NCBI GenBank assembly: GCA_036149055.1
Contig: JAYZQJ010000026.1
Span: 1-23,245, forward strand
DNA from: Myxococcota bacterium
GTDB taxonomy: Bacteria > Myxococcota_A > Polyangia > Polyangiales > Sandaracinaceae
DNA length: 23,245 nt
Reading direction: 5' to 3'
The position numbers were made by a program, and so were the translations under genes. Each line of letters starts with the position of its first letter. Positions within the stretch are counted from its first letter, which is position 1. The notes under the pieces are model-generated. The model saw only the letters and a program-made list of their open reading frames with translations. It did no database searches and was not told the DNA's origin. Shown in pieces: positions 3,397 through 23,111 of this stretch.

Positions 3397-3999
3397 CTAC
3401 TCGCTGGGCGGGCCGAGGAACGGGAAGGTCGGGGTCTGCGCGCCGTCGTCGGCGGTGACGGTGTCGTCCACGCCGTCGAGCGCGCCGGCGGCGAGCACCG
3501 AGTAGCTGCGCTCGATGACGTCGTCCGACGGGGTCCGCCCGCCGCAGCCGCCCATGCCCTCCGGCACCGCGCCGACGACCTCCGCCTCGAGCCCGAGGTA
3601 GGTCCCGCAGGTCGTGCGCTCGGTGTGCACGTAGAGGCGGTCGTCGAGGAGGATGGTCGCGAGGGTCTCGTAGCGGCCCGCCTCGGCGGTCTCGCCGGCG
3701 AGCAGCTGGTTGCCGCAGGTCGCGTCGAGCGCGTCGAGGATGGCGAGGCTCGTCTGGACGGTGCCCATGAACGCGCCGGCGGTCGAGGGCGTCGCCGCGT
3801 TGTAGCGGTCCTTGGCCTCGTCCTTCGCGGCCGAGTCGCCGTTGAAGGTCTCGACCAGCGCGGTGCTGATCGCGGGCCGGCCGGTGCGGTCGATCTGCGC
3901 GCCGAGCGCGGGGCGGCCGTCGCGACCGTAGAAGCCCTCGGCCGAGCCGCAGCCGAGCGCGAGGAGAGCGATGGAGATCGTGATCGTACGGGTGATCAT
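3397..3999 (-). CDS. DUF4331-family lipoprotein (C-terminal-half type), 200 aa
   Basis: From ATG 3999: lipoprotein signal MITRTITISIALLALGC. Motifs QIDRTGRPAISTAL, GRTPSDDVI and FPFLGPP. AAGGA SD-like sequence upstream. Confidence 0.75.
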   Translation of the reverse strand: MITRTITISIALLALGCGSAEGFYGRDGRPALGAQIDRTGRPAISTALVETFNGDSAAKDEAKDRYNAATPSTAGAFMGTVQTSLAILDALDATCGNQLLAGETAEAGRYETLATILLDDRLYVHTERTTCGTYLGLEAEVVGAVPEGMGGCGGRTPSDDVIERSYSVLAAGALDGVDDTVTADDGAQTPTFPFLGPPSE

Positions 4000-4016: not shown

Positions 4017-4739
4017 TCAAGGGGCCCGGTGAGTGCTCGCCCACACGGCGACCAACGGGCCGCCGGGGGTGACCAGCGCGGGATCGAGCTGGACGACGAG
4101 GGAGAGGACGTCGGCGCCGGCGAAGGTGTCGCTGGCCGGAGCCCCGCCCTCGCCCGACTGCAGCTGCCCGACGATGGCGTTGGCGGTGTCGGCGTCGACC
4201 GTGGGGCAGCCCGCGGGATCGAACTCGAGCGCGCCGGCCGCGGAGACCACGGTGCTCACCGCGTTGGTGAACCCGGTGAACTCCATGAAGAACGGGTCGT
4301 TGCGCCGCCCGGCGAAGACGCGGATGCCGCCCCCGTCGCTGACGATCCCGGCGGGGTCGGTCGGGTCCCCGGCCACGTACTGGTCGCCGACCCAGCACTC
4401 GATGGCCGTCGGCTCGCTGAACTGGCACTGCACCTCGGTCTCGGTCGTGGCCTCGCCGTAGGCGGTCGTGCTCCCCACGTGGAAGACGTACTGGACCGAG
4501 TCCGAGAACTGCGCGTCGGCGCCGGCGAACGGGTTGACGTCCATGACCAGGTTGAGGCGGGTCTCCCCGTCGACCTGGGTGTTCCAGGCGAAGAGGTCGG
4601 TGATGTCGGCGGTGGGCTCCGCCACGGCGGCGGGGCTGTCGATGTGGTCGGCCGCCTGCACCCACGAGCTCGCGATGGCGAGCGAGAGCGCGGTGAGTGA
4701 GAGCCCGCCCAGGAGGATGGGCCTGCTTCGTGTTCGCAT
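4017..4739 (-). CDS. DUF4331-family secreted protein (N-terminal-half type), 240 aa
   Basis: Signal peptide ending VQA, then ADHIDSP, DITDLFAW, FAGRRNDPFF, DTFAGADVLSLVVQL and VWAST. GGAG upstream of the ATG. Confidence 0.8.
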   Translation of the reverse strand: MRTRSRPILLGGLSLTALSLAIASSWVQAADHIDSPAAVAEPTADITDLFAWNTQVDGETRLNLVMDVNPFAGADAQFSDSVQYVFHVGSTTAYGEATTETEVQCQFSEPTAIECWVGDQYVAGDPTDPAGIVSDGGGIRVFAGRRNDPFFMEFTGFTNAVSTVVSAAGALEFDPAGCPTVDADTANAIVGQLQSGEGGAPASDTFAGADVLSLVVQLDPALVTPGGPLVAVWASTHRAP

Positions 4740-8338: not shown

Positions 8339-8812
8339 GTGGCGGAGCGCGAGACCGAGACCGATCGAGAGGACCCCCGACGCGAGAGCCGCCGCTCCCG
8401 CTCGCTCGGCCGCGGCATCGCGACCGCCGTGGTGGTCGCCGGTCTCGTCTACCTGTGCTTCGTCGGGTTCTACTCGGTGATCCCCCAGGTCTTCTGGCCC
8501 GAGCGGGGCGAGGCGCCCGACGGCGTGAGCTGCGCCGCCGGCCTGACCGACCTCCGCGGGGAGCTGCTGGCGCGCGCGGGCGATCGGGTCGCGAGCGGCG
8601 GCGGCGATCAGGCCTCGCTGACCACCTGGCTCGACGGCTGGGACCGGCGCCACCTCGCCCTCGAGGCGCGCTGCGATGGAGAGAGACACGACGCCTGGCA
8701 GGTCCTGGGCCGCCTGCGTCAACGCCTTCAGGGCACCCTGGAGCGATTCGACGCCGAAGAAGGCGGTTTCGCTCGCGACATGGACTCGAGACTGGCCGCG
8801 ATCGGCCAGTGA
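8339..8812 (+). CDS. Hypothetical single-TM protein, 157 aa
   Basis: GTG 8339 follows GGAAGGA. TM segment GIATAVVVAGLVYLCFVGFYSVI, then a helical domain with two Cys. Confidence 0.7.
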   Translation: MAERETETDREDPRRESRRSRSLGRGIATAVVVAGLVYLCFVGFYSVIPQVFWPERGEAPDGVSCAAGLTDLRGELLARAGDRVASGGGDQASLTTWLDGWDRRHLALEARCDGERHDAWQVLGRLRQRLQGTLERFDAEEGGFARDMDSRLAAIGQ

Positions 8813-8829
8813 CACGGACTTCCCTCGAC

Positions 8830-10539
8830 ATGACCGACACGACTGACGACACCGGACCCTCCTTCGCCGACCTCGGCCTCAGCGACGAGGTGCTCCGCGC
8901 CATCGACGACATGGGCTTCGCCGAGCCCACCCCCGTGCAGGCGGCCGCCTACGGCCCCGCCACCGAGGGGCTGGATCTCATCGTCCAGGCCCGCACCGGG
9001 ACCGGCAAGACGGCGGCCTTCGGCCTGCCCCTGGTCGACGCCCTGGTGGACGAGGACGGCGGGCCCCAGGCCCTGATCCTCGCCCCGACCCGCGAGCTCG
9101 CGCTCCAGTCGGCGCGCGAGATCGGCCGGCTCGGCGCCCACCTCGGCATCCGCACCGCCGCCGTCTACGGCGGCGCGCCGATCGAGCGGCAGGTGCGCGA
9201 GCTCGAGGCGGGCGCGCAGATCGTCAGCGGCACCCCCGGGCGCGTGCTCGACCACCTCAAGCGCGGGACGCTCGACGGCGACAAGCTCAAGATCCTCGTC
9301 CTCGACGAGGCCGACGAGATGCTCTCGATGGGCTTCGCCAAGGAGCTCAACGCGATCGTCGCGCTGCTGCCGACCAAGCGCCAGACGCTGCTCTTCAGCG
9401 CCACCATCGACGGCGCGGTCGAGCGCATGTCGCAGCGCATGATGAAGGACCCCCAGCGCATCAGCCTCTCGAGCGACGCGGTCGGGGCCCAGACGATCAC
9501 GCACTACTATTACCTGGTGACCGGCGTCGGGAAGACCCGCGACCTCATCCGCGTGCTCGAGAACGAGGACCCGGAGAGCGCGCTCATCTTCTGCAACACG
9601 AAGGTCATGACCGAGCGCGTGGCCCGCGAGCTCAAGCAGGCCGGCTTCAACGCCGACTGGCTGAACGGCGACCTGCCGCAGTCCGAGCGCGAGAAGGTCC
9701 TGAAGCGGACCCGCGAGGGCACCCTGCGCTACCTCGTCGCCACCGACGTGGCCGCCCGCGGCATCGACATCTCGCACGTCACCCACGTGGTGAACCACGA
9801 CTTCCCCGAGAACATCGAGGCGTACATCCACCGCACCGGGCGCACCGGCCGCGCGGGGCGCACCGGCACCGCGATCGCGATGGTGTCGCCGCAGGAGCTG
9901 GGCTCGCTCTACTACCTGCGCCTCACCTACAAGATCTTCCCGATCGAGCGCTCCCTGCCGTCGCAGGGCGAGCTGCAGACCCGCCGCGAGGCGGATCGCA
10001 TCGGGCTCCTCAGCGAGGCGTTCACCGCCGAGCCGAGCGAGATCGATCGCGCCGTCGCCCGCCGCCTGCTCGCGCACCCCGACGCGGAGCGCCTGCTCGG
10101 GGGGCTCCTGGCGGCCTTCTTCGGCCCGCGCGAGGACGTGGACGAGGAGGCGGCCGCCGCGCGCCGCGAGCGCCCGGCCCCGCCGGCCCCCGAGCCGGAG
10201 GCCCAGGAGGAGCGCCCGAAGAAGAAGGCGCGCGCCGAGCGCCGCCCCTCGCGCGACGAGGAGGACGACGACGAGGGCGCCGAGCACGAGGGCGAAGACG
10301 ACGTCTTCCTCTACATCAACGTCGGCCGCCGCGACGGGGTCCGCCCGGGCGAGATCATCCGGCTGCTCGCCGAGAACTGCGCCGTCGACAAGGCCGAGGT
10401 CGGCCGCATCCGCATCCGTGACCGCCACACCTTCGTCGGCGTCCCGCGCGACAAGGCCGACGAGATCGTCGACCAGCTCGCCGGCACCGAGAGCCACGAG
10501 AAGGAGCTGGTCGTGGAGAAGGCCCGAGCGCAGCCGTGA
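8830..10539 (+). CDS. deaD: DEAD-box RNA helicase with DbpA-type C-terminal RNA-binding domain (DeaD/CsdA-like)
   Basis: Q motif GFAEPTPVQ, then GTGKT, PTRELA, TPGRVLDH, DEAD, SAT, ARGID and HRTGRTGRAG. C-terminal LYINVGRRDGVRPGEI...IRDRHTFV. Alternative start GTG 8809 overlaps the upstream stop. Confidence 0.92.
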   Translation: MTDTTDDTGPSFADLGLSDEVLRAIDDMGFAEPTPVQAAAYGPATEGLDLIVQARTGTGKTAAFGLPLVDALVDEDGGPQALILAPTRELALQSAREIGRLGAHLGIRTAAVYGGAPIERQVRELEAGAQIVSGTPGRVLDHLKRGTLDGDKLKILVLDEADEMLSMGFAKELNAIVALLPTKRQTLLFSATIDGAVERMSQRMMKDPQRISLSSDAVGAQTITHYYYLVTGVGKTRDLIRVLENEDPESALIFCNTKVMTERVARELKQAGFNADWLNGDLPQSEREKVLKRTREGTLRYLVATDVAARGIDISHVTHVVNHDFPENIEAYIHRTGRTGRAGRTGTAIAMVSPQELGSLYYLRLTYKIFPIERSLPSQGELQTRREADRIGLLSEAFTAEPSEIDRAVARRLLAHPDAERLLGGLLAAFFGPREDVDEEAAAARRERPAPPAPEPEAQEERPKKKARAERRPSRDEEDDDEGAEHEGEDDVFLYINVGRRDGVRPGEIIRLLAENCAVDKAEVGRIRIRDRHTFVGVPRDKADEIVDQLAGTESHEKELVVEKARAQP

Positions 10540-11303
10540 AGACGCTCCGGCTCGTGACGGCGCTCCTCGCCTGCACGATGCCGTGCGCCTGCGACGACGA
10601 CGCCGTGCACGGCGGCCCTCGTCGCGGGCGCGGCGCGACCGAGCCCAGCGCGGTGGTGCCCGTCCCCGCGCCCCCCGAGGGCGAGACGAGCCCGCGCCCG
10701 CACCGGCCGCGCCTCCTGGACCAGCGCGCCCTCGAGGCGCAGGAGCGCGGTCCCGCGCCGGCCGCGTCCCAGCCCGGAGGCGCCCCGGGCGAAGCGGCCG
10801 AGGAGGCCGAGGGTCGAGACCTCGAGGCCGACCTGCGGCGCGCGTTCGGGGCGCCGACCGACTGCCTCTCGGAGGAGACCCGCGACGCCATGGGGGACGC
10901 GCTGACCCTCCAGGTGAGCGTTCGGGTCACGCCGGCCGGCCGCGTCGTCTCGGCCGAGGTCACCGGCGGCGCGCTCTCCGAGGCCGATCGCGCGTGCCTC
11001 ACCCGGCGCGCCGAGGGCATCCGGATGGCAGCGCCGATCGAGGACGCGCCCCGCACCGTGAGCGCGACGATCCGATATTCCGTCCAAGACGGGCGGGTGA
11101 CGACCACGGAGCGCGAGCTGCCCGAGCGCAGCTACGGGCCGGGCACCTTGCTGCCCGACTCGACCCTCCCGGCCGCGGGGACCGAGACCGAGCGCCCCGC
11201 CGGCAGCCTCGCGCCGTCGAGCACCCTCCCCGCCCAGGGCGCGGAGGGCCGCCCTCCCGGCTTCGTCCCGCCGTCGAGCACGCTCCCCGCCCTGGGTGAG
11301 TGA
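10536..11303 (+). CDS. Putative lipoprotein with a TonB-C/AgmX-PglI-like domain and three C-terminal repeats, 255 aa
   Basis: GTG start overlaps the helicase stop (GTGA). Signal MKTLRLVTALLACTMPCAC. Domain DCL...VSVRVTPAGRVVSAEV...ACLTRRAEGIRMAAP...VSATIRY. Confidence 0.65.
   Translation: MKTLRLVTALLACTMPCACDDDAVHGGPRRGRGATEPSAVVPVPAPPEGETSPRPHRPRLLDQRALEAQERGPAPAASQPGGAPGEAAEEAEGRDLEADLRRAFGAPTDCLSEETRDAMGDALTLQVSVRVTPAGRVVSAEVTGGALSEADRACLTRRAEGIRMAAPIEDAPRTVSATIRYSVQDGRVTTTERELPERSYGPGTLLPDSTLPAAGTETERPAGSLAPSSTLPAQGAEGRPPGFVPPSSTLPALGE
11119..11300 (+). repeat. Three imperfect 57-60 nt coding tandem repeats (PG/AG-x3-P-x-STLPA-x-G)
   Basis: GPGTLLPDSTLPAAG, RPAGSLAPSSTLPAQG and RPPGFVPPSSTLPALG. 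The Thr codons of STLPA start at 11163, 11223 and 11280. Confidence 0.8.
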
Positions 11304-11348
11304 AGGCTTGTGGCCGGGGGGCCGATCCGGCTAGTTTCGTTCGCTGCG

Positions 11349-13271
11349 ATGGCAGACACCTCCAGCGTGGCCCGACAGAAGGCGCCCGGGCTCGCCCCCG
11401 GATCGGTCGTCGGAGGCCGCTTCGAGATCGAGCGCGCCGTGGCCGAGGACGCCCTCGGCAGCGTGCTCGCCGCCAAGGACCAGAAGACCGGCCGGCCGAT
11501 CGCCGTGCGGGTGCTCTCCCCCGGGCTGATCGCGACGCCCGAGGCGGTGGAGAGGCTGCGGGCGGAGGTCAAGACGGCCGCCACCATCCAGCACAAGAAC
11601 ATCGTCGCCACCTACGGGATGGGGCAGGACAAGGGCGGCGCCCGCTTCATCGCGACCGAGTGGGTCGAGGGGCGGCGGCTCTCCTCGGTGATCGAGGAGA
11701 AAAAGAAAGAGTCGGCGACGCCGATGTCGCTCCGCGGCGCGTACAACGTAGTCGCGCACGTGTGCAAGGGGCTCTCGGCGGCCGCCAAGAAGGGCGCCTG
11801 TCACGGCGCGCTGCGGCCCGGCGTGGTCTTCGTCACCCAGGCCGGCCGGGTGAAGGTCGGCGGCCTCGGGCTCGACCAGGCCATCGCGCTCACCGCGGGC
11901 CCCGCCGCGCTCGGCGCGGGCGAGCAGGCCTTCCTCGCCCCCGAGGTGAAGCAGGGCCAGGCGCCCGGCCCGGCGAGTGACGTCTTCGGCCTCGGCGGCC
12001 TGCTCTACGCGATGCTCACCGGCCGGAGCCCGCTCGACGACTTCGTGGCGCCCTCGCAGGCCCACCCGGAGGCCGGCCCCGAGGTCGACCAGGTCCTCAT
12101 GCGCTGCCTCTCGGCCGACCCGGCCGCGCGCTTCGGCTCGGCCCAGGAGGTGAAGGCGGCGCTGGTCGGGCTCGCCAAGGGCACGGAGCCGGCCACCGAC
12201 CAGGACGACTTCGGGGTGGACGTCGACCTCGACATCGACATCGGCTCGCTGCAGCCGCCGCCCGCCGAGCCGGCGCCGAGCGCCCCCGCGGCCAAGGCGC
12301 CTCCCCGCCCGGCGGCGCCCGCCTCTCCCGGCGGCGGCCCGCAGGTCGGGCAGCGGGTCGCGCTCGACGAGAGCTTCCGCTCGGCGCCCGGCATCGGCGC
12401 GCCGGCCGCGAGCGCCGAGGTCGACCTCACCAACCTCCTGTCGAAGATCACCGAGAACGACGCGCCGCGCTGGATGGTGGTCAAGGACAACCTCGATCAC
12501 GGCCCGTTCAGCGGCCGCGAGCTCGTCAACCTCATCCTCAAGGGCGACGTGCTCGGCGAGCACCGCCTGCTCAACATGGACACCGGCCAGCGCGTCGAGG
12601 TGCGCGAGGCCCCCGAGTTCACCGAGTTCGTCGAGCAGTTCCGGCTCAAGAAGGCCGAGCAGGACCACCAGGTCGCGCTCCAGAAGTCGGAGAAGGCCGA
12701 GAAGGTCTCCATGGTGTCGAAGATCGCCATCCTCGGCGGCGTCGCCGCGGTGGTCGGCATCGGCGTGGTGGTCTTCCTCGTGACCCGGCCCGACGTGCAG
12801 GAGGAGGAGCGCTCCGACGCCGACGTCGCCGACCTCTACGAGCGCGGCGAGATCGAGATCAGCGGCTCGGCCGGCATCCTGCCCGACCCGCCCCGACGGC
12901 GCGGCGGCGGGCGGCGGGCGCGACGCGGCGGAGGCGGCGGCGCGATGAGCTACGAGGACGCGATGAACCAGGTCGCCGACCTCGGCAGCGCCAACAGCAC
13001 CGGCAGCCAGCGTCGCCTGACCCCGCAGCAGGTCGCGGGCGTGATGAACCAGAACATCAACCGGCTCGTCCCCTGCCTCTCCCAGGGCTCGGGCGGCGGG
13101 CAGGTCCGCATCGACATGGCGATCGCGGGGAGCGGCCAGGTGCTCGGCGCCTCGGTGCGCAACGGGACGCCCGGGTTCCAGCGCTGCATCGCGGGCCGGG
13201 TCCGTCAGATCCGCTTCCCCTCCTTCCCCGCCCCACGCATGGGCGCGAGCTACACGTTCAGCGCCAACTGA
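11349..13271 (+). CDS. Ser/Thr kinase-like (pseudokinase) - GYF_2-like - TM - TonB-C/AgmX-like multidomain membrane protein, 640 aa
   Basis: Kinase scaffold GRFEIER...IAVRVL...E...IQHKNIVATY...TEWVEG...FLAPE...SDVFGLGGLLYAMLTGRSP...RCLSADPAARF. GYF-like WMVVKDNLDHGPFSGRELVNLILKG. TM IAILGGVAAVVGIGVVVFLV. C-terminal LTPQQVAGVMNQNINRLVPCL...IAGSGQV...RCIAGRVRQIRFPSF. Confidence 0.85.
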   Translation: MADTSSVARQKAPGLAPGSVVGGRFEIERAVAEDALGSVLAAKDQKTGRPIAVRVLSPGLIATPEAVERLRAEVKTAATIQHKNIVATYGMGQDKGGARFIATEWVEGRRLSSVIEEKKKESATPMSLRGAYNVVAHVCKGLSAAAKKGACHGALRPGVVFVTQAGRVKVGGLGLDQAIALTAGPAALGAGEQAFLAPEVKQGQAPGPASDVFGLGGLLYAMLTGRSPLDDFVAPSQAHPEAGPEVDQVLMRCLSADPAARFGSAQEVKAALVGLAKGTEPATDQDDFGVDVDLDIDIGSLQPPPAEPAPSAPAAKAPPRPAAPASPGGGPQVGQRVALDESFRSAPGIGAPAASAEVDLTNLLSKITENDAPRWMVVKDNLDHGPFSGRELVNLILKGDVLGEHRLLNMDTGQRVEVREAPEFTEFVEQFRLKKAEQDHQVALQKSEKAEKVSMVSKIAILGGVAAVVGIGVVVFLVTRPDVQEEERSDADVADLYERGEIEISGSAGILPDPPRRRGGGRRARRGGGGGAMSYEDAMNQVADLGSANSTGSQRRLTPQQVAGVMNQNINRLVPCLSQGSGGGQVRIDMAIAGSGQVLGASVRNGTPGFQRCIAGRVRQIRFPSFPAPRMGASYTFSAN

Positions 13272-14035
13272 TGCGCGCCCTGGCCCTCGCGCTCGCGCTC
13301 CTCGCCGCCGGCTGCGAAGCCGAGCTGGCGGCGGATCTGAGCGAGCCGCAGGCCGACGAGATCGTGCTCGCCCTCGACGGCCGGGGCATCGCCGCCGACA
13401 AGGCGCGCGCCGACCTCGCGGGCGAGGCGCGCTACCGGGTGGTCGTCGCGCAGGCCGACGTGCCCGCGGCGCTCGCGGTGCTCCGCGACCACGACCTGCC
13501 CCGGCGGGAGGCGCCCGGCTTCGCGGAGATCTTCGACGACGGAAGCCTCGTGCCGAGCGCGGCCGAGGAGCGCGCCCGGTACGCGGCCGCCATCGCGGGG
13601 GAGCTGGCCCGGTCGCTCGAGGCGATGGAGGGCGTGCGCCGCGCGCGGGTTCACGTGGCCACGCCCGAGGTCGGCAGCCGCACCCTGGACGAGGGGCCGG
13701 CCCGCGCCCGCGCGTCGGTGCTCGTCCTGCACGACCCGAGCGCCACCGTGGACGAGGGCGCGGTGCGGGCGCTCGTCGCCGGCGCCGTCCAGGACCTGGC
13801 GCCCGAGGACGTCGCGGTGGTCCGCGCGCCCGCCCGCGCCGCCCGCGGAGAGGACGCCCGGCTCGCCCGCGTCGGCCCCATCGCCGTGAGCCGCGGGACC
13901 GCCGGCGTGCTCAAGGCGGTGCTCGCCGCCAGCTTCGCGCTGAACCTGTTGCTCGTGATGGCGCTGGTGTGGATCCGGCGCCGCGCGGGCGGAGAGACCC
14001 CGAGCCGCCACGGAGGCGCGCCGGCCAAGACCTGA
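13271..14035 (+). CDS. SctJ/YscJ/HrcJ (FliF-related) inner-membrane ring lipoprotein, 254 aa
   Basis: Lipobox LLAAGC. LSEPQADEIVLALDGRGIAADK, V...DVPAALAVL...LPR, GFAEIFDDGSLVPSAAEERARY...GELARSLEAMEGVRRARVHV, ASVLV and LVAGAVQDLAPEDVAVV, followed by a C-terminal TM and basic stop-transfer. Confidence 0.85.
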   Translation: MRALALALALLAAGCEAELAADLSEPQADEIVLALDGRGIAADKARADLAGEARYRVVVAQADVPAALAVLRDHDLPRREAPGFAEIFDDGSLVPSAAEERARYAAAIAGELARSLEAMEGVRRARVHVATPEVGSRTLDEGPARARASVLVLHDPSATVDEGAVRALVAGAVQDLAPEDVAVVRAPARAARGEDARLARVGPIAVSRGTAGVLKAVLAASFALNLLLVMALVWIRRRAGGETPSRHGGAPAKT

Positions 14036-14050
14036 GGGAGGGGAACCGAC

Positions 14051-15286
14051 ATGTCGAAGGACGCGCTCGCGAACGCCAACTACTACTTCAACCGCGCCTC
14101 GAAGATCCTGGGGCTGACCGACGACGTCGCGGTGCAGCTCCGGACCCCGCACCGCGAGGTCAAGGTCGAGTGCACCGTGCGCATGGACGACGGGAGCATC
14201 GGCACCTTCGTCGGCTACCGCGTCCAGCACGACAACGCGCGCGGCCCCTTCAAGGGCGGCCTCCGCTACCACCACGAGGTGGACGAGCAGGAGGTGACGG
14301 CGCTCGCGCAGCTGATGACGTGGAAGACCGCGGTCGTCGGCGTGCCGTTCGGCGGGGCCAAGGGCGGCATCCAGGTCGACACGACCAAGCTCTCCGACGA
14401 CGAGATGCAGCGCATGACGCGCCGCTTCGTCGACGGGATCTACGAGGTCATCGGCGACAAGACCGACATCCCGGCGCCGGACATGTACACGAACTCGCAG
14501 GTCATGGCGTGGATCTTCGACCAGTACGCCAACTACCGCGGCTACACGCCGGGCGTGGTCACCGGGAAGCCGGTCGAGCTCGGCGGCTCGCTCGGGCGCG
14601 GCTCGGCGACCGGCCGCGGCTGCCTCTACGCGTGCGAGAACCTGCTCGAGTCGGTCGGCGAGTCCATGGAGGGCAAGCGGGTCATCGTGCAGGGCTTCGG
14701 CAACGTCGGCAGCTGGGCCGCCCGCCTCTTCGAGGAGCAGGGCGCGAAGGTGGTCGGCATCGCCGACATCTCGGGCGGCTACTACAACCCCGAGGGCATC
14801 GACCTGAACGCGGCGATGAAGGAGGTCGCGACCGACCGGAGCCTCGAGGGGTTCAAGGGCGGCGAGCGGATCAGCGGCGAGGCCATCCTCGTGCAGGACT
14901 GCGACATCCTCATCCCGGCGGCGCTCGGCGGCGTGATCACCAAGGACGTGGCCAAGGACGTCCAGGCGAAGATCATCGTCGAGGGCGCCAACGGCCCGAC
15001 GACGCCCGACGCCGACGAGGTCTTCGAGAAGCGCGGCGTGCACGTGATCCCCGACATCTACGCCAACGCGGGCGGGGTCACGGTGAGCTACTTCGAGTGG
15101 GCTCAGAACATGCAGAACTTCTACTGGGACGAGGACCGGGTGAACGACGAGCTCCGCCGGATCATGAAGAAGAGCTGGGGCGAGCTGCACGGCATCTCGA
15201 AGAGCCGGAACATCCCGCTCCGCATGGCCGCCTACGTGCTCGGCGTCGGCCGCGTCGATCAGGCGACCTCGCTCCGCGGCGTCTGA
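14051..15286 (+). CDS. gdhA: Glutamate dehydrogenase (Glu/Leu/Phe/Val dehydrogenase family), 411 aa
   Basis: GPFKGGLRYH, GGAKGG, DIPAPD, VVTGKP...GGSLGRGSATGRG, QGFGNVG, EGANGPTT and IPDIYANAGGVTVSYFEW. Strong purine-rich RBS GAGGGAGGGG. Confidence 0.93.
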   Translation: MSKDALANANYYFNRASKILGLTDDVAVQLRTPHREVKVECTVRMDDGSIGTFVGYRVQHDNARGPFKGGLRYHHEVDEQEVTALAQLMTWKTAVVGVPFGGAKGGIQVDTTKLSDDEMQRMTRRFVDGIYEVIGDKTDIPAPDMYTNSQVMAWIFDQYANYRGYTPGVVTGKPVELGGSLGRGSATGRGCLYACENLLESVGESMEGKRVIVQGFGNVGSWAARLFEEQGAKVVGIADISGGYYNPEGIDLNAAMKEVATDRSLEGFKGGERISGEAILVQDCDILIPAALGGVITKDVAKDVQAKIIVEGANGPTTPDADEVFEKRGVHVIPDIYANAGGVTVSYFEWAQNMQNFYWDEDRVNDELRRIMKKSWGELHGISKSRNIPLRMAAYVLGVGRVDQATSLRGV

Positions 15287-15288
15287 GC

Positions 15289-16239
15289 TCAGCGGAAGAA
15301 GGGGCGCTCGACCGCGAAGAGGAGGCGGCTGGCGCCCGTCCTCCACTCGGCGGGCGCCGCGCTCCCGCGCAGGACCACCCCCATGGCGTAGGCCTGCCCG
15401 ACGAGCGCCGGCGCCCGGAGGCGCGCGACCACCGCGTCCATCCGATCCGGGTCGTCGAGCAGCTCGAGCAGCGCCTCGCCCTCCTCCCCCGAGGCCCGCG
15501 CCTCCGCGACCAGCGCGTCGCTCTCCCAGCCCTCCCGGCGGGCGAGCGCCAGCGCGGTCCAGAGGGTCGTGGGGCCGACGCCCTCGGTCGCGGGCAGCGC
15601 GGCCGCGCGGACCAGCGCCTCGGGCGGGGCGCCTTCGCTCGCGGCGACCAGGCGCAAGAAGACCGGCTCGTCGGCGAGGCGTGAGCGGAGCGCCTCGTGG
15701 AGCCGGCCACGGGCGAGCGCGCGCCAGGGCGCGAGGGCCTCCGCCTCCTCGGGCGAGACCTCCACCGCCCTCTCGACGGCGAGATAGCTGCGGAGCATCG
15801 GCATCCCCTCCGCCAGCTCCGGGAGCTCGTCCGCGTCCCCCCACGTCGCCCGTCGGACGCGGGCGAGGTCCCACGCCATCGAGCGCCAGAGCGCCGCCGT
15901 GGCCGGCGTCCGGGCGCGCATGAGGAGCGAAGCCGCCTCCCGCCAGGCGCCGCGGGACACCGCCCCGTAGGCCGCGGCCATGCTCAGCCAGGCGTTGTCG
16001 GGGTACTGCGCGTGGGCCGCCTCGTACGCGAGGTGGCGCGCGTCGCGGTCCGGGGCGCACGCCGCCGCGAGGTACGCGTCGTCGCCGCTCTCCGGCGTCG
16101 CGTCGCGCACGCCCTCGCACGCCGCCGCCTTGACCGCGGGATCGTCGTCGCTCGCCAGCAGGTAGCGCCAGAAGAGCACGTCCGGCTCGCGGCGCGCGCG
16201 CTCTCGGACGATCGACGTCGCGTCGGGCGAGTGCGTCAT
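15289..16239 (-). CDS. Helical (TPR-like) protein, most likely the frameshifted C-terminal part of the M48 peptidase
   Basis: C-terminal 316 aa of ORF 15289..18528 (MTHSPDATSIVRE...RLLFAVERPFFR) has coding-like codon bias. The GC3-biased frame extends upstream to about 16281. Confidence 0.65.
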   Translation of the reverse strand: MTHSPDATSIVRERARREPDVLFWRYLLASDDDPAVKAAACEGVRDATPESGDDAYLAAACAPDRDARHLAYEAAHAQYPDNAWLSMAAAYGAVSRGAWREAASLLMRARTPATAALWRSMAWDLARVRRATWGDADELPELAEGMPMLRSYLAVERAVEVSPEEAEALAPWRALARGRLHEALRSRLADEPVFLRLVAASEGAPPEALVRAAALPATEGVGPTTLWTALALARREGWESDALVAEARASGEEGEALLELLDDPDRMDAVVARLRAPALVGQAYAMGVVLRGSAAPAEWRTGASRLLFAVERPFFR

Positions 16240-19109
16240 GTACGCGATCCACGCGCCCAGCTCGGGCGAGCTCGACGGGTCCAACGGAGGTGAGCCTCCA
16301 CCAGGGCGCGCCGCTCGGCCTCGTCCTCCACGTACTGCATGTGGGTCGAGGCGTCGCCCTCGATGGCGGTCAACACGTCGCGCGTCGTGCCGCTGCTCCG
16401 GCTCGACACCCTGAGCTGCGAGGGCGGCTCCTGGAGCACGAAGTCCACGCTCGTGTCGCTCCACCGCGGGGCGCCGAGCGCGACCTCGTTCGCGGGGACG
16501 TCGTAGCCGTAGCTGACCGTCCACTCGACCAGCGCCGAGGCGCCGGCGACGTTGTAGACGTAGTCGCGGAAGGCGTGGTCGACGTCCGCGTCGAAGCGCT
16601 CGACCAGCTCGCCGCTCCGGGTGCGGGCCTCGAGGGTGACCTCCCCCGTGTCGACGTCGAGGCGCTGGCTCGCGTGCGGGAGCACGAACCGCTGCTCCTC
16701 TCCGACCTGCACCACGACCCCGACGCCGAGCCCGTTGTGCACGTGGAGGGTGGCCCCGCCGGTGCTGCCGCCGAGCATCAGCGCCGGGACGAGCACCGCG
16801 CTCGCCACCGCGAAGCGCGCCGTGCCCGGGACCCAGCCGTCGGCGATGACGAAGCGCTCCCACCAGCCGAGCTTCTTCTGCCGCTCTCGCTCCTCGCCGA
16901 CCACGAACGACCGGTACTCGGGCGGCACGAGCGCCGCGGCGGGCGCGGGGCCGGGATCGTCCCCCTCGCGCACGGCGGCGGCGATGCGCTCCTCGACCTC
17001 GAGCAGGGCCTCCAGCGTCACGCCCGCCAGGTGCCTGAACGCGTCGGAGGCGCCGAGGGCCCAGCTGTCCGACGCCTGCAGCCAGTCGCCGAGGTTGGAC
17101 TCGGTGGGCGGCGGGAGCTCGAAGGGGCCGTCGAGGCGCTGCGACCAGCCCTCGACCTCGAGCCGCTCCAGCACCGCGTCGGGGAGGACCACCTGGTCGC
17201 GCTCGGCGAACGCGCGCTCGAGCGGCGCGTAGAGGTCCTCCGCCGCCGACCGCAGGCGGCGCCGCTCGGATCCCGAGACGTGGCCGTCCACGATGACGAT
17301 CGAGAAGACGTGGTGGAGGTAGTCCGCGCCGTCCGCGAGGTTGGCGGAGGTGTGATCGGCGTAGTGCAGCAGGCGCACCAGGCTGACGTGGTGGTCCTCC
17401 CACGCCGGGCCGAGCTGGCGCGCCGCCAGGCGATGCGCGGTCCGGGCGGCGCGGTCGTGGGCCACCACGCGCGCCTCCGCCTCCCGACGCTCCTCCTCGA
17501 CGGACTCGACGACCGCGGCCAGCTTCTTCTTCGGGATCTCGGCGCCGCGGTGATGGATGACGCCGCCGGGCGCGTCCAGCACACCGTCCTGCAGCGCCGT
17601 CAGCATCTGCTTCTCTCGCGTCAGGTCCTTGAAGCTCTCGAGGTCGTGCACGAGCTGCTCGGGGTAGAGCGCGTCCAGCCGCGCGATCACCTCGTCGCGG
17701 TCGAGCTCCTCGTCGCAGTCGTCGAAGCAGTCGCGCACGCCTCGCGCCGACTCCACCACCGACCGCCCGAGGTAGGCGCCGCGGTAGCGCCGGTCGAGCA
17801 TCGGGCGCCCGTAGTCCTCGTCCACCTTGGCGAGCACCTCCTCGATCGGGACCGGCGCGCGCTCGCCCTCGGGGATGACGGTCTCGAGGAAGCGCTCGGT
17901 CACCCGGCGTCGCAGCCCCGGCGCGTCGGTGAAGAGGGCCCAGGCCGGGCGCGGGTCGAGCTTCGAGTCGAGGTAGATCCGCTTGGCGTTGTCCTCGCGC
18001 TCGCGGCTCGGCGGGTGGGTCCACCACATCCGAGGCGGCAGCGCGAGCTCCTGGTCGAACACGCGATGGCCCTCGCGCTGGCGCTCGGGTCGCGCGGGCG
18101 TCTCCCCGAAGGCGGCGTCGTCGAGGATGGCGCGCAGGTGCTCGAGGATGTGTCGCTGGAGGGTGAAGAGGTCGTCGACCTGCCGCTTGCGACCCAGCTC
18201 GCCGATCGCCAGCCGGGAGGCGCGATCCCACGCGTCGTCGGCGGCGCCGAGCTTGTGGAGCGCGTGGATCAGGCTGTCGCTCCCGCTGACCGAGACCGCC
18301 ACCAGGTCGGCCTGCAGCTCCATCTCCCGGCTGAGCGCGCTGTGCGCGTGGATGACGAGGAGGAAGAAGGTGTCGAGCACGGCGCGGAGGGCCCAGACCA
18401 GCAGGCGCAGGATCCAGCCGATCCACGCGATCCGGATGTCGAACCCGCTCAGCCCGTGCAGCATGCGGTCGAGCCACCCGCGGCTGACGATCACGTGCCC
18501 CGCGATCTGGTGCGCGATGTAGACCCACCGGCCGACGGCCATGGTCCGCTGCGCGAAGTGGCCGAACTCGTGGGCCACCACGGCCTTGATCTCGTCGAGC
18601 GACAGCACCTCCACCAGCCCGAGCCCGATCTCGAGGTTCTTGCGCGAGGGCCAGATCAGGTTCCAGAAGGACAGGTCGTAGAAGACCGCGGCGTTGACGC
18701 GCGCGGAGAGGAACACGCGGTGCGGCCGCGGCGCCCCGGTCTCGTCGGCGATGCGGTGCACGAAGCGGAACAGCTCGGGCTGGTCGTCCGGCGTCACCTC
18801 GACCAGGCTCTCGTCCCGCCGGTGCTTCACCAGGAAGAGGCCGCGCACCAGGAAGCCGAAGAAGAGCGCGGGGAGCGCCGCCGCGAGCAGCCCGAAGAAG
18901 GCGCTGCCCCCGGTCACGGCGTCGTAGATCAGCCGGAACGAGAGCCAGCCCAGGTAGACGGTGAGCCCCAGGTAGAGCCCGACGAAGACCACGAGGCCGC
19001 CGAAGGCGAGCCAGGCGCGGCGCTCGTACGCCGGGGTGGGGGCGGTGAGATCCGGGGGGACCTCGCGGGGGTTCGGCGGATAGAGCTCCGCCTGCGTCGC
19101 GATCGGCAT
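16236..19109 (-). CDS. Large M48 (HtpX/Ste24-like) zinc metallopeptidase, apparently truncated by a frameshift near 16281
   Basis: N-terminal TMs, QPELF...IADETGAPRP, VNAAV, AVVAHEFGHF (HExxH), SREMELQAD and THPP...RE. Confidence 0.85.
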   Translation of the reverse strand: MPIATQAELYPPNPREVPPDLTAPTPAYERRAWLAFGGLVVFVGLYLGLTVYLGWLSFRLIYDAVTGGSAFFGLLAAALPALFFGFLVRGLFLVKHRRDESLVEVTPDDQPELFRFVHRIADETGAPRPHRVFLSARVNAAVFYDLSFWNLIWPSRKNLEIGLGLVEVLSLDEIKAVVAHEFGHFAQRTMAVGRWVYIAHQIAGHVIVSRGWLDRMLHGLSGFDIRIAWIGWILRLLVWALRAVLDTFFLLVIHAHSALSREMELQADLVAVSVSGSDSLIHALHKLGAADDAWDRASRLAIGELGRKRQVDDLFTLQRHILEHLRAILDDAAFGETPARPERQREGHRVFDQELALPPRMWWTHPPSREREDNAKRIYLDSKLDPRPAWALFTDAPGLRRRVTERFLETVIPEGERAPVPIEEVLAKVDEDYGRPMLDRRYRGAYLGRSVVESARGVRDCFDDCDEELDRDEVIARLDALYPEQLVHDLESFKDLTREKQMLTALQDGVLDAPGGVIHHRGAEIPKKKLAAVVESVEEERREAEARVVAHDRAARTAHRLAARQLGPAWEDHHVSLVRLLHYADHTSANLADGADYLHHVFSIVIVDGHVSGSERRRLRSAAEDLYAPLERAFAERDQVVLPDAVLERLEVEGWSQRLDGPFELPPPTESNLGDWLQASDSWALGASDAFRHLAGVTLEALLEVEERIAAAVREGDDPGPAPAAALVPPEYRSFVVGEERERQKKLGWWERFVIADGWVPGTARFAVASAVLVPALMLGGSTGGATLHVHNGLGVGVVVQVGEEQRFVLPHASQRLDVDTGEVTLEARTRSGELVERFDADVDHAFRDYVYNVAGASALVEWTVSYGYDVPANEVALGAPRWSDTSVDFVLQEPPSQLRVSSRSSGTTRDVLTAIEGDASTHMQYVEDEAERRALVEAHLRWTRRARPSWARGSRT

Positions 19110-19939: not shown

Positions 19940-20725
19940 ATGTCTGACCAGAAGGAATCCTCCGTCCTCTTCAACCTCAAGGAGCTGATGAACCTCGAAG
20001 AGGAGCGGATTCACGCCGAGGAAGAAGAGAAGCGTCGCAAGGAGGAAGAGGAGCGCGCCCGCCGCGAAGCCGAGGAGGCCCGCCGCCGTGAGGAGGAGGA
20101 GGCCCGTCGCCGCGCCGAGGAGGAGGCCCGCCTCGCCGAGGAGCGCGCCAAGCGCGACGAGGAAGAGCGCAAGGTCCGCGAGAAGGAGGAGCGCGAGCTC
20201 GCCCTCCGGCTCGAGGCGGAGCAGAAGGCCCGGCTCGCCGAGCAGGAGCGCCTGCTCGCGCACGAGCAGGAGATGAAGCGGATCGAGGCGCAGCGCCGCA
20301 AGGGCGTGCACCCGGCCGTGTTCGCGGTGGTCGCGCTCGTGATCCTGGGCGTCGCCGGCGGGGGCGGCTACGTCTGGTACGCGAAGTCGCAGGAGGCCGA
20401 GCAGCAGCGCATCGCGGCCGAGCAGCGGGCAGCCCGGGCTCGTGAAGAGGCGGAGGCGCGCGCCGAGGCGGCGCGTCAGGCGGCGGCGGACGCCGAGGAG
20501 GCCCGTCAGCAGGCGGCGGCGGCCCAGGCGGCGGCGGCGGCGGCTCAGCAGGCTCAGGCCGAGGAGGCCGAGGAGGAGCAGCAGGCGGCGACCACCCGTC
20601 GCACGCGTCGCGCGGCCCGTCGTCGGGCCGGTGGGGCGGCCCGTCGGAGCGGCCGGAGCGGCGGCGGCGGCGGTGGCGGCGGCGGGAACGACAACGACCC
20701 GCTCGCCGGCCTCGAAGGTCTCTGA
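19940..20725 (+). CDS. Bitopic membrane protein with a long E/R/K-rich helix, TM and A/E/Q-rich helix (TolA-like composition), 261 aa
   Basis: MSDQKESSVLFNLKELMNLEEERI, then about 100 aa of E/R/K/A. TM AVFAVVALVILGVAGGGGYVWY, A/Q/E-rich segment, Arg-rich and poly-Gly linker, and terminal NDNDPLAGLEGL. GGAG upstream. Confidence 0.8.
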   Translation: MSDQKESSVLFNLKELMNLEEERIHAEEEEKRRKEEEERARREAEEARRREEEEARRRAEEEARLAEERAKRDEEERKVREKEERELALRLEAEQKARLAEQERLLAHEQEMKRIEAQRRKGVHPAVFAVVALVILGVAGGGGYVWYAKSQEAEQQRIAAEQRAARAREEAEARAEAARQAAADAEEARQQAAAAQAAAAAAQQAQAEEAEEEQQAATTRRTRRAARRRAGGAARRSGRSGGGGGGGGGNDNDPLAGLEGL

Positions 20726-22367: not shown

Positions 22368-23111
22368 ATGGTCCCTGGTCTCCCCCCCTGGTACCTCGCC
22401 TCGGCGCTGCTCCTCTGCGCCGATCCGATGTCCTTCGCGCCCGAAGAAGGCCCGACCCTGTCGCAGGCCCTCGAGGGTGAGATGAGCGTCCCCTACCTCG
22501 AGGTGGTCGCGTCGAGCCCGGTCCCCGCGGGCATCGGCGTCGGCAGCCACTACGGCTGGCGCACCTCGACCCGCACGGGCCGACGCACCTTCCACGCCGG
22601 CGCGGACTTCCTCGCCGGCCGCGGCACCCCGGTCTACGCGGTCCGCGAGGGTGTGGTCGAGTCGGTCGCCGTCGAGGGCGCCCGCACCCGGCGGTTCTCC
22701 GGCTACGGCAACGCCGTCGTCGTCCGCCACGAGGACACCGGCGAGTGGTCCTTCTACGCCCACCTCGGCGAGGTGTCGGTCGAGGAGGGCGACGTCGTCG
22801 TCCCCGGCCAGCAGCTCGGCCTGGTCGGCAACACCACCAACGGCCGCTTCCCCGGCATGGTGCCCCACCTCCACTTCGAGGTCCGCGAGGCCACCCCCGA
22901 GGGCGAGTCGCCCTTCCCCGGCCCCTACCGCCGCTACAACCTCGACCCCGAGGAGTGGCTCGCCGAGCTGGGCGTCCGCTACCACCACGACCACGAAGAC
23001 GAGGACTGCGTGGTTCACGGCGAAGGCGAGGCGCCGGCCCCGATCCTGGTCGTCCGCGCCGCCGAGCCCACCCTCGTCGCGGACAACCACTTCGGCGCCG
23101 CCGCGTTCTGA
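22368..23111 (+). CDS. M23 family metallopeptidase (putative peptidoglycan hydrolase), 247 aa
   Basis: SHYGWR...FHAGADF (HxxxD), GTPVYAV, GYGNAVVVRH, FYAHL, GDVV..GQQLGLVGNT and PHLHFEV (HxH). GGGGAG RBS. Confidence 0.9.
   Translation: MVPGLPPWYLASALLLCADPMSFAPEEGPTLSQALEGEMSVPYLEVVASSPVPAGIGVGSHYGWRTSTRTGRRTFHAGADFLAGRGTPVYAVREGVVESVAVEGARTRRFSGYGNAVVVRHEDTGEWSFYAHLGEVSVEEGDVVVPGQQLGLVGNTTNGRFPGMVPHLHFEVREATPEGESPFPGPYRRYNLDPEEWLAELGVRYHHDHEDEDCVVHGEGEAPAPILVVRAAEPTLVADNHFGAAAF

Follow-up and report, generated by a model that had tools for sequence, protein, structure and literature searches.

A sctJ gene beside a pseudokinase gene in a Sandaracinaceae genome: probable part of a scattered type III secretion system of non-flagellar kind in the Polyangiales

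A stretch of 23,245 nucleotides from a Sandaracinaceae bacterium of the Myxococcota (assembly GCA_036149055.1, contig JAYZQJ010000026.1; the whole stretch is called the window below) carries a gene for SctJ, the inner-membrane ring lipoprotein of type III secretion systems (T3SS), directly behind genes for a putative lipoprotein and a pseudokinase protein, and raises the question of which machine this ring serves. The initial annotation regarded the SctJ as solitary and combined it with its two neighbours into a Glt-like envelope machine. The SctJ is not solitary, because the rest of a non-flagellar T3SS is encoded elsewhere in the same genome. With a probability of about 0.65, sctJ is part of a non-flagellar T3SS scattered over the genomes of Polyangiales, likely a needle-less export gate, and the two preceding genes, for lipoprotein and pseudokinase, are likely neighbours of longer standing with an envelope role of their own. 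In what follows, G000 is the source genome assembly (which has gaps), G001 belongs to the same genus and G003 is a closed relative; C-numbers are contigs of the named genome, L-numbers are fetched loci, and f and g labels are families and genera of the sample.

Three consecutive envelope genes on the plus strand, described as such before, are present as open reading frames of 255 amino acids (10536-11303), 640 amino acids (11349-13271) and 254 amino acids (13271-14035), of which the last two are indeed joined by a TGATG overlap at 13269-13273. The second frame is taken from the ATG at 11349; the longest frame opens with a GTG at 11310. Their features are as follows.

10536..11303, plus strand: gene 1, putative lipoprotein (Cys-containing signal judged by eye) with an AgmX/PglI-tail domain resembling TonB/TolA C-terminal domains
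10812..11093, plus strand: folded Cys-pair domain of gene 1 (from model and alignment)
11349..13271, plus strand: gene 2, bitopic protein of pseudokinase, GYF_2-like domain, transmembrane helix and AgmX tail
11400..12176, plus strand: Hanks-type kinase fold without catalytic residues (PknA/PknB are the top matches of a fold search)
12462..12608, plus strand: GYF_2-like domain with the near-invariant motif RWM..K..LDHGPFSGREL
12723..12779, plus strand: the one transmembrane helix
13020..13259, plus strand: periplasmic AgmX/PglI-type tail, below the model cut-off
13271..14035, plus strand: gene 3, sctJ, inner-membrane ring lipoprotein (lipobox Cys15, ring-building region, C-terminal transmembrane helix)

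The assignment of gene 3 to the SctJ family holds: its product matches YscJ_FliF (E 1e-24) and is SctJ-type by a score of 140.5 bits on TIGR02544 (below the cut-off of 161.95 bits) versus 40.3 bits on the FliF model. The best PDB matches of its profile are PrgK, MxiJ and EscJ, the aligned homologues all keep Cys15 (73 of 73), and the gene is under purifying selection (dN/dS of 0.29 relative to G001). In seven fetched loci (L192, L193, L194, L119, L144, L151 and L155), the SctJ match starts only at about residue 65-90 and the first ring-building motif is apparently absent; these shortened copies still adjoin the pseudokinase gene, directly downstream of it.

By the terms of the initial annotation, its proposal would fall if SctJ served a complete T3SS encoded elsewhere, and this is largely what the source genome shows: a full export gate, an ATPase complex and a sorting platform are encoded at other loci of G000, in addition to a separate flagellar set.

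C58:32012-33334: SctN, better on the Sct than on the flagellar model
C106:8256-8966: SctR, better on the Sct model and over its cut-off
C189:16952-18021: SctS and SctT; T is better on the Sct model, S passes the SctS cut-off and scores higher on FliQ
C55:45281-46267: SctU, better on the Sct model
C286:9663-10733: SctQ, better on the Sct model and over its cut-off
C125:84984-86086: SctL and a gene in the K position, called by position and size only
C220:10161-10625: SctO
C106:25585-25932: FliO
C4:83500-100100 and C259:9274-17400: flagellar set (FliF, FliG, FliI, FliP, FlhA, FlhB and others)

Of the non-flagellar T3SS core of Abby and Rocha, J, N, Q, R, S, T and U are found in G000; Sct models give the best scores for all of these but S, which is ambiguous. 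The remaining core member, SctV, has no match in the G000 assembly, and the same holds for alaS, recR and ybaB, the neighbours of sctV in related genomes; an Sct-type SctV is present in G001 and G003. Because these usual flanking genes, which are essential, are missing as well, sctV most likely lies within an assembly gap, and its absence from the organism was rejected. In the closed genome G003, single copies of U (1.96 Mb), J (5.48), T (5.75), V (5.80), R (7.98), Q (9.10) and N (9.78 Mb) occupy seven loci across 8 Mb, with no second (flagellar) copies, and N, U, T and Q are present in all five genomes tested. Some relatives carry a second FliP-type copy, in a patchy pattern, and G003 has none.

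That the system would not be a canonical T3SS was rightly anticipated, in that no SctD, SctI or T3SS-linked secretin was found. Full-length SctD exceeded the cut-off in none of five genomes, which gave only partial N-terminal matches in the FHA region, and a seven-sequence SctI profile returned nothing credible from G000 (best E 0.09), where the gene may have diverged or may lie in an assembly gap. An in-genome profile, with no SctC model run and the assembly gapped, picked up four secretins in G000, none of them linked to a T3SS; judged by their neighbours, from gene calls made here, they are one Tad, two type II secretion system and one PilQ type. Upstream of a sigma-sctI-sctJ cluster in G043, a gene for 142 amino acids (L106:7129-7557) has no Pfam or NCBIfam match and a C-terminus that presumably recalls needle or secreted helical proteins; this needle-like candidate has no homologue in G000, for which SctF and translocon models were not searched. 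The best match of a sigma-70-family gene of G000 (C70:24404-25069, L218) is the sigma factor directly upstream of sctI-sctJ in three clusters from outside the order (L106-L108), and this gene is possibly another scattered piece of the T3SS. The NPTH motif is missing from SctU in four of the five copies shown, a loss that fits a system no longer switching from needle to effector export and also fits decay. In L089 (G037:C10:3529-4537), sctU is apparently split over two frames in the assembly and retains NPTH.

By the distribution of these genes, sctJ is kept or lost with the export gate rather than with its neighbour. Among 121 Polyangiales genomes of at least 90% completeness, G000 included, SctJ was detected in 77 at E <= 1e-25, a count that is a floor, SctR/FliP in 101 and SctU/FlhB in 86, the latter two tallies taking in flagellar copies; related genomes in these tallies are kin, hence non-independent, and are samples only. 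SctJ at first seemed to be absent from families f3 and f7, a reading rejected because the search threshold accounts for it. In genus g20, SctJ, SctR/FliP and SctU/FlhB are each found in none of 15 genomes, and four of these lack SctJ even at E <= 0.001, but the pseudokinase is found in all 15. The five g20 loci that were fetched keep the DEAD-box helicase gene followed by the pseudokinase gene with no sctJ behind it, and the g20 pseudokinase is full-length at about 40% identity. The pseudokinase protein persists without the T3SS. The cpaB gene of Tad systems is present in 102 of the 121 genomes and in 13 of the 15 of g20; a pairing of the scattered T3SS with Tad/Kil was considered and is unsupported, since cpaB is kept where the T3SS is lost. 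A Tad locus of G000 (C59:27774-36017, L219) resembles the Kil system: it encodes two ATPases for secretion, of which one is FHA-fused, along with an FHA protein, TadB- and TadC-like proteins, a secretin and CpaB. A second cpaB lies on C19.

Outside the order, sctJ is found within an I-J-K-L-N-O cluster in all seven loci read (I, L and O were checked for one or two), and one SctJ within the clade of these clusters is named from Bradymonadales. Among 123 fetched loci with a SctJ-like match, which overlap and are of unequal length, another sct-like gene occurs only in these seven clusters and in the flagellar locus. In the SctN tree, the proteins of six dispersed genes join those of four clustered ones and are separate from the FliI of G000 (support 96), but the root is uninformative because the tree contains one FliI only and two clustered SctN fall outside it; the base of the SctJ tree is poorly resolved. 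The clusters outside the order and the grouping of SctN together point to the breakup of an ancestral cluster within the Polyangiales. No genome of a 70-genome phylum sample contains two strong SctJ matches.

The protein encoded before sctJ appears to belong to a different pathway. Its kinase fold has neither catalytic Asp nor catalytic-loop Asn. Across the alignment of 102 sequences, A, G or T stands in place of the HRD Asp in every one, and Arg in place of the beta3 Lys in 95; having neither the beta3 Lys nor the catalytic Asp of active Hanks kinases, the product is by its sequence a pseudokinase. A fold search with the whole protein returned kinases alone. The middle domain has no match to Pfam GYF_2 (PF14237) and is likened to GYF_2 clusters by predicted structure (TM-score 0.65-0.75, feature score 0.80), as a lead only, and the tail scores 24-28 bits on NF033768, the AgmX/PglI C-terminal domain model, under its cut-off of 40 bits. 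The domains first assigned to this protein are right, the GYF domain as a resemblance of predicted structure and the tail with a match below threshold. The tail had also been taken as Glt-like, and it is not Glt-specific: NF033768 has 38 matches in G000, 25 of them over the cut-off, so that its sharing by genes 1 and 2 says little. The GltJ model NF033761 has no match in gene 2, the N-terminus of which is a kinase fold, not a zinc ribbon. The protein is conserved in Myxococcota whether or not a T3SS is present, and one homologue (P0053) is named from Sandaracinus amylolyticus. Homologues in four small Polyangiales genomes (L110 in G098, L056 in G031, L061 in G029 and L197 in G112) apparently lack the kinase domain and keep the GYF-like domain, transmembrane helix and tail, directly before sctJ. 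By analogy with GltJ, the protein probably serves as an adaptor in a pathway of its own, with the non-catalytic and GYF domains inside and the AgmX tail outside, where the tail would bind an envelope partner.

Gene 1 is likely a bystander. Its start overlaps the stop of the DEAD-box helicase gene by 4 bp, and its domain, which has Pro-rich flanks, is related to the Cys-pair domain of gene 2 (hhalign 87%, E 4e-6), as the similarity noted earlier had suggested. Both Cys residues are invariant in 30 of 30 aligned homologues; the domain itself scores 14 bits on NF033768, and 14 of the 30 homologues match that model; like the tail of gene 2, it is tied to this family by low-scoring matches and fold only. 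The fold is predicted with confidence (pLDDT 94), and among PDB structures it comes closest to TolA/TonB C-terminal domains, with no match reaching E <= 0.001. Of 91 genomes, 25 have the lipoprotein gene within 600 bp of the pseudokinase match and 32 have it within 4 kb. Three loci carry it in inverted orientation, and it has no matching homologue in f17 (0 of 20), f18 (0 of 20) or f11 (0 of 7), families where sctJ is common. The proposed synteny of three genes thus reduces to the adjacency of two, conserved for pseudokinase and sctJ and patchy for the lipoprotein.

Whether the pseudokinase is nevertheless a partner of SctJ depends on how this adjacency is read. The pseudokinase gene stands directly before sctJ in 25 of the first 29 loci and in 52 of the 56 genomes with strong matches to both, a count that excludes 21 sctJ genomes without a strong pseudokinase match; the four exceptions are one gap of 1.7 kb and three split contigs. 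The eleven of these 21 genomes that were inspected include five with the genes adjacent, one with them 1.4 kb apart and five with them unlinked. Contigs from RNA libraries span the junction in three of four runs from two studies, which is no proof of a single transcript, since contigs alone were used, without depth and gaps, and DNA carry-over is possible. As a control pair, sctU precedes priA in 33 of 71 genomes (from 72 SctU/FlhB rows hand-picked as non-flagellar, rows judged flagellar being dropped), with a 4-bp overlap in G000; sctV is often downstream of recR, and sctT upstream of hpt. Scattered sct genes regularly have conserved neighbours, and overlap and synteny alone therefore do not indicate partnership. 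In Bradymonadales-like genomes the pseudokinase gene is far from the sct cluster; in G052 it lies 0.84 Mb from sctJ and adjoins a gene that we take to be tsaE. A complex prediction for SctJ (residues 15-212) and the pseudokinase protein (481-640), run with alignments, gave no answer (score 0.00) and speaks neither for nor against binding.

Several observations weigh against reading sctJ as a T3SS gene with an incidental neighbour. Its link to the pseudokinase gene is tighter than that of the control pair and holds in family f17, in which sctU-priA is not retained. In ten of 13 further fetched genomes that had missed the SctJ threshold, a diverged sctJ was found behind the pseudokinase gene (the other three being two g20 loci without sctJ and one contig end). 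The loss in g20 is one event, not 15. A GltJ-like gene of zinc ribbon, GYF_2, transmembrane helix and AgmX tail (G000:C189:14214-16043, L161) lies two genes upstream of sctS-T, and such a gene precedes sctS-T in three of four loci (G000, G037 and G031, not G003), a coincidence noticed post hoc. Some SctJ lack the first ring motif which, with the loss of NPTH from SctU, may mean that T3SS parts are decaying. The SctJ and SctN trees contain no Myxococcus sequence (a search with a divergent SctJ aimed at such sequences gave six matches). Assembly of the scattered T3SS is probable and, like secretion by it, predicted from its genes.

A rival idea is that the pseudokinase protein was recruited beside the SctJ ring in place of the missing SctD, tying the ring to cytoplasmic partners by its GYF and pseudokinase domains and to the envelope by its AgmX tail. 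The adjacency with its stop/start overlap, the lack of full-length SctD in all five genomes, the GltJ-like gene near sctS-T and the RNA-library contigs, which are not evidence of one transcript, agree with it, as does a topology of the same class as that of SctD (cytoplasmic adaptor, one transmembrane helix, periplasmic domain). It is unlikely nonetheless, given that the full-length protein occurs in g20 without any T3SS, that it is unlinked from sctJ in Bradymonadales-like genomes (the one tested, G052, also lacks SctD) and in five of the eleven inspected genomes of divergent families, and that its periplasmic domain is TonB-C-terminal-domain-like with no ring-building motif. Equally unlikely is the extended proposal that such an SctD-replacing pseudokinase couples the dispersed needle-less export gate to the envelope network of GYF and TonB-tail proteins that serves gliding and contact sensing.

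Decay is an improbable alternative to the export gate: the scattered genes would then be relics of a T3SS that has lost the ability to assemble, in keeping with the broken cluster, the lack of SctI and SctD among the genes found, the SctU copies without NPTH, the truncated SctJ of some families and the absence of the whole set from g20. Against this, most families of the order have intact single-copy open reading frames, six Polyangiales SctN are 59-76% identical and keep Walker A, and sctJ is constrained, as its dN/dS indicates. The stand-alone, T3SS-independent Glt-like machine of lipoprotein, pseudokinase protein and orphan SctJ ring is very improbable. In its favour, the three envelope genes stand side by side, the Cys-pair domains of two of them are related, and many of the Sandaracinaceae as well as some further families have all three together; but the central point of that proposal fails in g20, where SctJ is lost with SctR and SctU and the pseudokinase is not; the lipoprotein has no match in 47 genomes of three families and is inverted in three loci, the tail domain is one of 38 in G000, and the genome-wide Sct set by itself already largely refutes it.

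In a canonical T3SS, SctJ rings the SctRSTU gate and SctV; SctN, SctL and SctO provide ATP-driven loading, and SctQ and SctK form the cytoplasmic platform. If sctJ belongs to the scattered T3SS, its product would, by analogy, oligomerise around SctRSTU and SctV, and SctN-L-O would power loading on a platform of SctQ and the SctK-like protein. With no SctD, rod or secretin of its own found, substrates would be released into the periplasm or passed on to some other conduit in the outer membrane. An ancestral sctI-J-K-L-N-O cluster, which Bradymonadales-like genomes and other relatives keep whole, would have broken up in the Polyangiales, and sctJ may have come to rest behind the pseudokinase gene, likely on a shared transcript.

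The value of the locus lies in an overlooked dispersed T3SS and not in a three-gene machine. Most sampled Polyangiales keep a T3SS of scattered singletons, and the secretin-less, early-branching T3SS thereby gains a wider range; the methods of PMC3459982 describe a cluster-based search that required a secretin for scattered systems, and scattered singletons without one would be missed by it. 'Solitary' T3SS genes on Polyangiales windows are not orphans. The genus g20 is a natural loss lineage and Sandaracinus a cultivated genus for tests, so that what an SctD-less system exports becomes testable in a second order.

The window also carries genes of other kinds. Four terminator-like sites were found across the region (1.5 +/- 1.5 expected), and a promoter scan of the region found none.

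8650..10539 (start approximate), plus strand: DEAD-box helicase (Pfam DEAD, Helicase_C and DbpA), whose gene usually precedes that of the pseudokinase, in genomes without sctJ too
11311..11341, plus strand: weak terminator-like hairpin between genes 1 and 2
14051..15286, plus strand: Glu/Leu/Phe/Val dehydrogenase, one of several differing downstream neighbours of sctJ

A small conserved membrane protein with no Pfam match (8345-8601) is encoded 5' of the helicase gene in many relatives. A coiled-coil transmembrane protein with a strongly conserved N-terminal motif and no convincing Pfam match (19940-20725) is encoded upstream of pyrF- and rlmB-like genes and recurs near this neighbourhood throughout the order (L110, L112, L166, L189 and L194). 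On the minus strand, a DUF4331 gene (4017-4739) is followed by a gene for a related-looking secreted protein, the open reading frame that ends at 3397, and a large M48 peptidase membrane protein is encoded at 16236-19109; an M23 peptidase gene lies at 22368-23111 on the plus strand.

The literature searched yielded no account of a dispersed T3SS in Polyangiales, nor one of the pseudokinase protein, although some supplements (PMC11509652 File S4, PMC11821767 Table S5 and PMC12403147 Dataset S2) may list these genes; the published systems are compared here as presented in passages of the cited papers. The needle-less myxobacterial T3SS is there said to be 'only present in Cystobacterineae' (PMC3459982), 'mainly' in Myxococcales (PMC10196010) or 'primarily restricted to' Myxococcia (bioRxiv 10.64898/2026.07.10.737566), and sctV and sctR annotations have been noted in Polyangia (PMC11509652). 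Scattered T3SS of Chlamydiales (PMC3459982) are similar in being vertically inherited and split over several loci, but Chlamydia has a secretin and no fewer than four loci of several genes each, whereas the Polyangiales genes are mostly singletons or pairs with no T3SS secretin found.

The pseudokinase protein resembles GltJ/AgmX and GltG/PglI of the Agl-Glt gliding machine (PMC11761067, PMC11135422) in being bitopic, with a cytoplasmic GYF-type adaptor, one transmembrane helix and a periplasmic tail like the TonB C-terminal domain. For these gliding proteins, GYF is shown to bind a Pro-rich partner (PMC11135422), and the tail has been modelled on GltD (PMC11761067). Unlike GltJ, the protein has a pseudokinase in place of the zinc ribbon, and the gene upstream of sctS-T at C189:14214-16043 is the better GltJ-like candidate.

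Two systems of Myxococcus xanthus are the closest points of reference. The needle-less T3SS* (MXAN_2434-2464; PMC10433427, PMC12075869, PMC12428579) shares with the Polyangiales set the lack of needle and secretin and the components SctJ, L, N, Q, R, S, T, U and V, and G000 likewise carries an FHA-containing Tad locus (C59). However, T3SS* holds SctD, SctI and LcrH-like chaperones in one cluster, the Polyangiales set has neither SctD nor SctI among the genes found, and, with cpaB persisting in g20 where the Polyangiales T3SS is lost, no tight pairing with Tad is shown. T3SS(2), the 'short' non-flagellar T3SS locus of Myxococcales (MXAN_5643-5654; PMC3459982, PMC10196010), is described as containing the gate, ATPase, SctJ and SctI but no SctD (PMC3459982); it resembles the Polyangiales set in having export gate, ATPase and SctJ with neither SctD nor secretin (PMC3459982, PMC10196010), and FliO is present in G000 as in both M. 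xanthus systems (PMC12403147). T3SS(2) differs in occupying one locus instead of ten or more, in possessing the SctI not found in G000, and in a published range that lies outside the Polyangiales. The second M. xanthus system is reported to be dispensable for prey killing (PMC10196010, PMC12403147, citing Thiery 2022). This, the gene content like that of the 'short' locus and the retention of Tad where the T3SS is lost favour somewhat, by analogy, a non-predatory role in periplasmic export, and leave a role in prey lysis like that of T3SS* as a tentative second possibility. By gene content, and with no orthology implied, the scattered T3SS of Polyangiales is nearer to T3SS(2) than to the predation T3SS*.

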